DNA of 64,000 nucleotides from a virus. Both the position numbers and the translations under genes were made by a program. The stretch lies in IMG/VR virus record IMGVR_UViG_3300031746_000002, positions 32,001 to 96,000 of that record; one strand, given 5' to 3'. The notes below the pieces were generated by a model, which did no database searches, had not been told where the DNA came from, and worked only from the letters and a program-made list of their open reading frames with translations. Of this stretch, positions 21,985 to 22,844 are shown piece after piece (position 1 is the stretch's first letter; every line of letters begins with the position of its first letter).

Positions 21985-22045
21985 AATTCTGCTGAAATAA
22001 AGCTTAATAATTAATTGAAAGGAAATAATAAAGGAGGTGAAAAAG

Positions 22046-22309
22046 ATGGCAAGGGTAAGCGGAGCAGGCAAGGGAAACAAACCAGAAAAGGTTGAGATGG
22101 TCCTTATGAAATCAAAAGTTTACAGGCTAGTTAAAGGTGAGCTTAAGATGAGGATATCTGCTGCATGTTTTGAAATAATCTCAGCAAGAGTTATAACAAT
22201 GATAAAACAAGCTGCTGAGCAAACAAAGGTAGATAAAAGGGAAACTATCAAACCAAGGGATTTTGATGCAGCTGCAAGGGCTGCAGTAGCAGGAGAAAGT
22301 AAAGAGTAA
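22046..22309 (+). CDS. Histone-fold protein with short N-terminal tail
   Basis: MRIS..., KRETIKPRDF L2-loop motif of HMf-type histones; GGAGGTG RBS before ATG 22046. Confidence 0.8.
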   Translation: MARVSGAGKGNKPEKVEMVLMKSKVYRLVKGELKMRISAACFEIISARVITMIKQAAEQTKVDKRETIKPRDFDAAARAAVAGESKE

Positions 22310-22341
22310 ATAGAGGAACAACGAAAAGGAGGAAAGTAAGT

Positions 22342-22779
22342 ATGAGTATTCAGGCTGATTTAAAGAAGTTAAGGGAAAAGAAGAAAGAGATTGCGGCAAA
22401 AATTACAAAGTTATTTGAAGAAAGAGGAGCAAATAACAAAAAGATTGCCGAACTCAAAGCAGAAGCATCAAAGGAAAAGAAAGCAGCAGCAAAGGAAGCA
22501 AAGGAAACAAAAGCAGAAAAGAAAGAAAAGAAAGTTGAAAAGAAAGAAGCAAAGAAAGAGACAAAGAAAGAGGCAAAGAAAGAGGCAAAGAAAGAAGAAA
22601 AGAAAGAAGAAAAGAAAGAAACAAAGAAAGAGGCAAAGAAAGAAGTTAAGCCAGAAAAAACAAAAGAGAAAACAAAGCCAGTAGACCCAGATGATGAAGA
22701 TGACAAAAAAGCACCAGCGGAAAAAGAAGAAAAGAAAGACGAAAAAAAGAAAACTGCTGATGAAGGCGATGACGAATAA
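22342..22779 (+). CDS. Lys/Glu/Ala-rich low-complexity protein (H1-like or histone-chaperone-like)
   Basis: KKEA/KKET/KKEE tetrapeptide repeats, N-terminal coiled coil, acidic tail. Confidence 0.6.
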   Translation: MSIQADLKKLREKKKEIAAKITKLFEERGANNKKIAELKAEASKEKKAAAKEAKETKAEKKEKKVEKKEAKKETKKEAKKEAKKEEKKEEKKETKKEAKKEVKPEKTKEKTKPVDPDDEDDKKAPAEKEEKKDEKKKTADEGDDE

Positions 22780-22803
22780 ACTTTAAATTATCCGGGTAAT
22801 TTA

Positions 22804-22844
22804 AATGGGGTGGAGTAGCTTAAACCCTACTCCACCCATTTTTT
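22804..22844 (+). terminator. Rho-independent terminator
   Basis: ATGGGGTGGAGTAG/CTACTCCACCCAT stem followed by T-run. Confidence 0.85.

Follow-up and report, generated by a model that had tools for sequence, protein, structure and literature searches.

The window analysed here, a 64,000-nucleotide (nt) stretch of the IMG/VR virus record IMGVR_UViG_3300031746_000002 (positions 32,001 to 96,000), contains a compact two-gene unit of an uncultured sediment phage that encodes a bacterial-type histone with a lysine-rich tail (open reading frame A, ORF A; protein P0001) and a charged helical partner (ORF B; protein P0002). Both genes lie on the + strand, each with its own ribosome-binding site, between a promoter-like motif at 22002 and a strong terminator at 22808-22844, and are separated by a gap of 32 nt (Table 1). 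An earlier note on this DNA had described a self-contained unit running from motif to terminator, and that description was borne out by the 10-mer GCTTAATAAT at 22002, two ORFs preceded by GGAGG, and a hairpin followed by a T run. The ORF finder proposed an alternative GTG start for ORF A at 22037, which overlaps the Shine-Dalgarno sequence, so the ATG at 22046 is the likely start. Long minus-strand ORFs over 22518-22677 were discarded as by-products of the 12-nt tandem repeat within ORF B, and an Rfam scan of 21500-23300 found no RNA family. A search of sequencing runs placed the stretch in DNA runs labelled sediment metagenome, three of the nine listed holding at least half of the sampled words, one of which may be the source; no RNA run was listed with it.

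Table 1. Features of the histone unit, in window coordinates (residue numbers for parts of a protein).
Feature	Position	Strand	Details
Promoter-like element	21982-22011 (10-mer 22002-22011)	+	TGAA 20 nt upstream of exact 10-mer GCTTAATAAT
Shine-Dalgarno GGAGG of ORF A	22033-22037	+	8 nt 5' of ATG 22046
ORF A (P0001)	22046-22309	+	alpha3-type histone-fold protein, 87 amino acids, begins MARVSGAGKGNK
Parts of ORF A	residues 1-15; 22-32; 39-62; 65-72; 70-85		basic disordered tail; alpha1; alpha2; RxTxxxxD loop; C-terminal helix
Shine-Dalgarno GGAGG of ORF B	22328-22332	+	9 nt 5' of ATG 22342
ORF B (P0002)	22342-22779	+	145 amino acids; head 1-45, Lys/Glu tract 46-101, acidic tail 102-145
12-nt tandem repeat encoding KKEx tract	22518-22677	+	13.3 copies, 77% matches
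Intrinsic terminator	hairpin 22808-22837, to 22844	+	11-bp stem (7 G-C), 8-nt loop, T run

Sequence and structure evidence agree on ORF A, and we are therefore highly confident that it adopts a histone fold. A phmmer search of P0001 against the PDB returned as its best matches the HBb/Bd0055 histone of Bdellovibrio (8cmp, E = 4.2e-4; 8fvx, E = 5.7e-4), aligned without gaps over residues 16-73, followed by HTkC (0.015) and a DUF1931 protein (0.085). A profile built from five family members matched HTkC (9f2c) at 7.6e-8, HBb at 9.4e-8 and 1.2e-7, and the DUF1931 protein 9qt0 at 8.6e-4; NF-Y (E 0.67-0.79) and core histones were not significant in that search. These matches make ORF A a homologue of the short alpha3 histones (HBb/Bd0055, HTkC) that occur in bacteria and archaea; it is not eukaryote-like in the manner of H4 or H2A. 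The AlphaFold2 (AF2) model of P0001 made with an alignment has helices at 22-32, 39-62 (24 residues) and 70-85, with a mean predicted local distance difference test score (pLDDT) of 70.5 and values below 50 for residues 1-10. This is the helix-loop-long helix-loop-helix order of a histone fold, with an alpha2 that is shorter than in nucleosomal histones and that aligns ungapped to HBb through its length. Every PDB row listed by Foldseek for this model was a histone-fold chain (probability 0.90-1.00), as were all 50 rows listed by VIA-align over residues 21-87, where the C-terminal helix aligned with alpha3 of H3, H4 and HMfB. P0001 carries a net charge of +8 (isoelectric point, pI, 9.9) and the motif RxTxxxxD (R65-E-T67-I-K-P-R-D72), in which the arginine and threonine are invariant in all seven aligned sequences and the aspartate is present in six. 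The single histone fold proposed in the earlier note thus rests on both PDB homology to HBb and HTkC and a histone-fold AF2 model; of the two outcomes that the note had named against itself, the first, that no such fold is predicted, did not occur.

Comparison with HBb and with face-to-face (FtF) histones was used to place ORF A among known histone types. Residue n of HBb corresponds to residue n+14 of P0001, the HBb residues being those given in the accessible part of Hu et al. (2024). The RD clamp of HBb (R51/D58) and its helper D49 are retained in P0001 as R65/D72 and D63, six of the ten DNA-contact residues are identical (S23, K24, K30, S38, T67 and R71), and two further contact positions have turned basic (T8 to K22, N22 to R36). 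The residues that mark FtF tetramers, R48 and N52 according to the FtF logo in the accessible text of Schwab et al. (2024), were not found: P0001 has Q59 and D63 in their place, and the family columns read Q/Q/Q/R/K/N and D/D/E/D/E/D. The same text delimits the alpha3 superfamily by an alpha3 truncated to 3-4 residues; the C-terminal helix of the P0001 model spans 16 residues (70-85) at a pLDDT of ~58-78, and the C-termini of its relatives vary, some being too short for such a helix. BBVHFPs are presented, in the part of Liu et al. (2025, PMC13681535) that is accessible, as Bd0055-like dimers in which a C-terminal helix replaces a loop. Since the RD clamp and the RxT...D motif are kept and both the FtF residues and a long C-terminal helix are absent, ORF A appears to fit best with these dimer-type, Bd0055-like viral proteins (BBVHFP of Liu et al.), and would by analogy be a dimer.

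Several results weigh against reading ORF A as a DNA-binding histone. The Pfam core-histone model (PF00125) scored 13.4 bits on it, under a cut-off of 26.4 (E 0.096), the NCBIfam archaeal histone model reached an E of 0.053, and PF00808 had no match in the record. The Foldseek E values of the model were only ~1e-2, and the VIA-align Z scores (5.8-6.8) fall below 8, a range that according to the tool can come from common helical arrangements. AF2 run on the single sequence gave one long helix, and was dropped for the alignment-based model. Finally, two contact lysines of HBb are gone in P0001, K12 being replaced by Y26 and K52, with reversal of charge, by E66. Pfam Histone matched two of the seven aligned proteins (best E 0.0036), PF00808 touched at most four of the seven (best E 0.016), and among PHROGs phrog_20203 matched ORF A at an E of only 0.015. 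Pfam, PHROGs and NCBIfam thus miss this family, and routine annotation would call such genes hypothetical.

Residues 1-15 of P0001 precede the part aligned with HBb and are poorly ordered in the AF2 model. A basic tail of 7-17 residues with 3-8 lysines and arginines was found in all six family members, in a variable sequence that has three glycines in P0001 and none or one in the five others, so that the Gly-Lys look of the P0001 tail is not conserved. The earlier note had likened this tail to those of eukaryotic H4 and H2A. A basic N-terminal tail does exist, but the likeness is not supported, given the alpha3 homologues, the Pfam score of 13.4 against 26.4 bits and the unconserved Gly-Lys pattern. 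No GNAT, SIR2, SET or deacetylase family that might modify such a tail was found in the record, an absence that is weak, as are all absences from it, because the record is only ~68% complete. Lysine-rich N-terminal tails of 5-40 residues are described for VFFHFPs, the viral FtF type, in the accessible text of Liu et al. (2025, PMC13681535). A tail was also seen in P0012, an HBb-like singlet of 84 amino acids, bacterial or metagenomic, on a 97.8-kb contig; it lies at the N-terminus, is 22 residues long and Gly/Pro-rich, and contains 11 glycines, which shows that tails also occur outside the phage family.

ORF B is a highly charged protein (51 lysines, 2 arginines, 32 glutamates and 10 aspartates; net charge +11, pI 9.4) in which three parts can be told apart. 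The head (residues 1-45, net +5) is coiled-coil-like, with a heptad-like spacing of hydrophobic residues judged by eye, and is 66% identical over 56 residues to its counterpart on a related metagenome contig, L002. The Lys/Glu tract that follows (46-101, net +11) consists of KKEA, KKEE and KKET repeats; in the L002 protein the tract is shorter and its unit is KKVE. The end (102-145, net -5) is rich in proline, aspartate and glutamate, and both proteins finish in DDE. ORF B matched no Pfam family at E<=10 and no PHROG at E<=1, and gave only noise below threshold in NCBIfam, searches in which HMMER filters may hide very weak matches; for the head alone no homologue was found at E<=0.01, and its coiled-coil matches in the PDB were not significant (E at least 0.22). 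The Atlas model of ORF B is of low confidence and its structural neighbours are long helices, which are uninformative. The earlier note had called ORF B a co-transcribed H1- or chaperone-like protein. The charged KKEA-repeat partner and its acidic end are indeed there, and the pair is kept in L002; no H1 or chaperone family was matched, and with no family or structure match of any kind 'H1-like' and 'chaperone-like' are descriptions of composition rather than findings. The tail of H1 is made of lysine, alanine and proline, unlike the mixed charge of ORF B, which counts against an H1-like protein. A complex prediction with two histone copies and ORF B scored 0.00 and gave no answer, and counts neither for nor against binding.

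The L002 contig has the same gene order as the window (primase, PD-(D/E)XK nuclease, histone, K/E-rich protein, dCMP deaminase), with a histone, P0005, that is 62% identical to P0001; the longest contig listed for P0005 measures 39.6 kb. At the equivalent place it carries a copy of the motif with one mismatch to GCTTAATAAT, and behind the second gene a terminator hairpin of different sequence (12 bp, 7 G-C, T run). A further contig, L003, has the nuclease followed by a histone (P0006) and then ends. Ratios of nonsynonymous to synonymous change (dN/dS, Nei-Gojobori) against L002, for which synonymous sites are near saturation, came to 0.166 for the histone and, over its first 45 codons, 0.151 for ORF B, beside 0.114 and 0.171 for the flanking nuclease and deaminase. 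Such values indicate that both ORFs are under purifying selection, ORF B having been tested over its head.

A search of 1.84 billion representative proteins returned nine at E<=0.001, namely P0005-P0008, P0012, three doublets and one spurious repeat protein of 724 amino acids (P0009), which was set aside as a false positive. In a set of 5.8 billion proteins the family comprised six clusters at 90% identity (P0003-P0008), P0003 differing from P0001 by one residue. A profile that included P0012 retrieved 1175 proteins, and the 120 matches listed were mostly doublets of 132 amino acids; NCBI names from Bdellovibrionota-type bacteria (Peredibacter, Bacteriovoracaceae) are attached to two among these 120, and the two share 29-41% identity with P0001. 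A tree was built from 59 rows, in which the phage family was represented by six proteins, to which were added P0012 and 26 of the 116 doublets (every fifth, plus P0011 and P0013), each doublet entered as its two halves. It placed the six phage-type proteins on one side of a branch with support of 96/83, opposite the bacterial doublet halves. The other 90 doublets, P0002, P0009 and P0003, which is near-identical to P0001, were left out; the tree is unrooted and has few columns, and its bootstrap did not settle. The earlier note had proposed a phylogeny against bacterial and archaeal histone classes, and with no HBb, FtF or archaeal sequences among its rows, the tree separates the phage family from bacterial doublet halves only. 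Atlas neighbours of ORF A, which serve as leads only, comprise two Uroviricota clusters and clusters of Myxococcota and Bdellovibrionota, one with PF00808. Phage GenBank records held nothing that matched the region, P0001 or P0012, whether as DNA or as protein; IMG/VR viral contigs, from which the window's own record may be excluded by design, held no relative of P0001, A1, A3 or P0012; and genome contigs held none of the histone family or of the phage ligase.

The record as a whole is 138.9 kb long, with an estimated completeness of ~68% and a G+C content of 31.4%; the large ORFs all lie on one strand. Upstream of the unit are genes for a ResIII/DEAD helicase, an IstB-like loader, a DnaB helicase, a DnaG primase and a PD-(D/E)XK nuclease, and downstream of it genes for a dCMP deaminase, a kinase-like protein, a radical SAM/SPASM protein and a uracil-DNA glycosylase (UDG), followed by an ORF of 1144 amino acids that, judged by eye, we take to encode a DnaE-type polymerase. 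Also encoded within the window are a terminase, a portal, a UvsX-like recombinase and an NAD ligase. Terminase and portal together with this set of replication genes indicate a large tailed phage and place the unit in a DNA-metabolism region, between its replication genes and its nucleotide-modification genes. Only one histone gene was found in the record, and no gene of the HU family. The nucleotide-modification block 3' of the operon differs between the relatives (window 22860-26671, L002 1996-5222): in L002 a homologue of the protein at 26907-27971 of the window comes immediately after the deaminase, and behind it are a radical SAM-like ORF and a further ORF, and the window's kinase, UDG and a 390-amino-acid ORF were not seen in the first 5 kb of L002. 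Within the large terminase subunit (48573-51491, + strand; phrog_17415) lies an intein that contains an HNH endonuclease (PF14890, E 7.2e-17, residues 112-454; PF01844, residues 358-397).

The element at the head of the unit, whose TGAA shares nucleotides with the stop codon of the nuclease gene before it, recurs in this phage. Exact copies of GCTTAATAAT number six in the window (6267, 9454, 22002, 26673, 56889 and 63433) where 0.70 are expected, a count that none of 100 shuffles reached, and two more lie elsewhere in the record; all eight are on the + strand and intergenic, and TGAA is present at -20 in five of them. With one mismatch allowed the motif has 20 copies, a number no higher than chance would give (it was reached in 22 of 100 shuffles), and a sigma-70 scan flagged no + strand promoter at the 22002 motif. 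The excess of exact copies, their strand and their intergenic placement lead us to regard GCTTAATAAT as a putative phage-specific promoter class. Its copies precede small or odd genes, plus tRNA-like RNAs at ~26693. Behind one of them lies a protein of 97 amino acids (9551-9844, + strand) with the single-stranded DNA-binding domain of PC4 (transcriptional coactivator p15; PF02229, E 4.3e-9, above cut-off), the second small DNA-binding protein of this phage to bear a name associated with eukaryotes. Behind another is an ORF of 81 amino acids (56922-57167, + strand) that resembles acyl carrier proteins (PF00550, E 0.0069, below cut-off). Carrier proteins usually bear a modified serine at a position where this ORF, by eye, reads D-E-L-D.

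From the analogy with HBb we infer that ORF A would form homodimers that contact the DNA backbone irrespective of sequence, by way of alpha1, loop L1 and the R-x-T loop, and that these dimers would bend or coat DNA. The 15-residue lysine-rich tail would probably raise the affinity for DNA. The production of ORF A probably coincides with the replication or modification of phage DNA, which the protein would organise or cover; compaction or shielding of phage DNA, or silencing of host DNA, as the earlier note had suggested, would be possible outcomes. Taken as far as DNA binding by ORF A, this reading seems to us, on balance, the probable one.

What ORF B contributes is more speculative. Our guess is that its basic Lys/Glu portion would form a rod along DNA or between histone-bound segments, and that its acidic end may touch basic proteins; that it acts on the same DNA-protein complex as ORF A is a tentative proposal, to which we give clearly less than an even chance. 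For ORF B alone, an account that comes close to an even prospect while falling somewhat short of it is that the protein is unrelated to the histone, an independent, charged and repeat-expanded protein that shares the transcript, such as a replisome-associated protein that ends in an acidic tail, or a flexible spacer. ORF B is tied to histones by no family, motif or structure, and the link between the two genes rests on their co-transcription and on one related contig, the only relative in which the pairing was seen. Its middle is encoded by a slippage-prone 12-nt repeat, and since repeat unit and length differ between the two phages it could be a loosely constrained polyampholyte. Acidic C-terminal tails are moreover common on phage replication proteins. 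Against an unrelated ORF B stand the gene order, 32-nt gap, motif and terminator, all kept in L002 despite a protein identity of ~60%, and the purifying selection on the head (dN/dS 0.151).

In its fullest form the proposal would be a minimal, phage-specific chromatin module, in which tailed dimers coat new and possibly hypermodified phage DNA and the K/E-rich protein uses a conserved head and an acidic end to load these dimers or to bridge them, as a linker or chaperone unrelated in sequence to H1 or known chaperones, the pair shielding the replicating genome from host nucleases or defence or organising it for packaging. We regard this whole chain of steps as improbable.

A different role for the fold itself would be that of a protein-protein or regulatory module in place of a bulk DNA-packaging protein, perhaps a factor in transcription or replication of the phage that attaches to machinery of the host or of the phage in the manner of TAF or NF-Y proteins. 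The promoter motif common to other small regulatory-looking genes, including that of the PC4-like protein, is in keeping with this, as are weak PDB matches that include NF-YB, the two lost contact lysines, and the tiny size of the family (nine matches at E<=0.001, one spurious, in a search of 1.84 billion representatives). The account is nonetheless unlikely, for the RD clamp, the R-x-T loop and most of the HBb backbone contacts are retained and two more positions are basic, P0001 combines a net charge of +8 with a lysine-rich tail, and the NF-Y matches (E 0.67-0.79) are not significant. A eukaryote-like chromatin, in which the tailed histone wraps nucleosome-like particles, an H4/H2A-like tail serves as a regulatory handle and ORF B is an H1 or a histone chaperone, would draw on the basic tail of a histone-fold protein, the lysine-rich tract and acidic end of ORF B in a conserved pair, and the match of the modelled C-terminal helix to alpha3 of H3, H4 and HMfB, but is very unlikely given that the best homologues are HBb and HTkC with Pfam Histone below its cut-off, that HBb is reported to bend rather than wrap DNA (Hu et al., 2024, in the text accessible), that the Gly-Lys look of the tail is missing from all five relatives, that the record holds a single histone gene and no GNAT, SIR2, SET or deacetylase, and that ORF B matches no H1 or chaperone family and has 42 acidic residues beside 53 basic ones.

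With DNA binding by dimers of ORF A as the favoured interpretation, the unit can be set against what has been published. Computational surveys have already described alpha3 histone-fold proteins of phages, with Bd0055-like and tailed forms among them, as the accessible parts of Schwab et al. (2024) and Liu et al. (2025, PMC13681535) make clear. The ORF A unit is a further example and not a new kind of system, its conserved partner gene being the one possibly new element. No bench study that dealt with a phage alpha3 histone emerged from a full-text literature search, nor, in the text accessible to it, any mention of a K/E-rich partner. The unit is of interest as a compact, bounded locus with a conserved partner, convenient for asking how a bacterial-type histone behaves with a basic tail and whether phages pair histones with accessory charged proteins, and its histone belongs to a small family (six clusters at 90% identity beyond P0001) on a branch of its own.

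Among known systems, HBb/Bd0055 of Bdellovibrio bacteriovorus (8cmp, 8fvx, 9ezz, 9f0e) is the best single-sequence PDB match of P0001, ungapped over 57-58 residues. The two share a short alpha2, the RD clamp with an extra aspartate and the threonine of the KT motif, and both are without the FtF tetramer residues. P0001 differs in being phage-encoded, at ~28-30% identity, in an operon with a K/E-rich partner; it adds a 15-residue lysine-rich N-terminal tail where HBb has none, and a predicted C-terminal helix of 16 residues where HBb has one turn. FtF histones (HTkC of Thermococcus kodakarensis, 9f2c; the DUF1931 protein 9qt0) have in common with it the alpha3-family core and the R-x-T loop, and HTkC is the best match of the family profile, but P0001 has Q59 and D63 in place of R48 and N52.

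Histones of tailed phages have been described as well. The 'phage histones' of Schwab et al. (2024; A0A2E7QIQ9 type, the VTTHFP of Liu et al.) likewise have an alpha3 histone fold in tailed phages, but, in the accessible accounts, carry a long C-terminal tetramerisation helix and are without RxTxxxD, whereas P0001 ends 15 residues past the fold, at residue 87, and keeps the motif. The viral histone-fold proteins of Caudoviricetes compiled by Liu et al. (hLife 2025, PMC13681535; bioRxiv 10.1101/2024.12.06.627149) resemble P0001 as alpha3 folds in tailed-phage genomes of IMG/VR. The accessible text of that study (PMC13681535) mentions no conserved K/E-rich neighbour for them, whereas P0001 has one, and, set against the clusters described there, P0001 unites the sequence features of the dimer type with an N-terminal tail.

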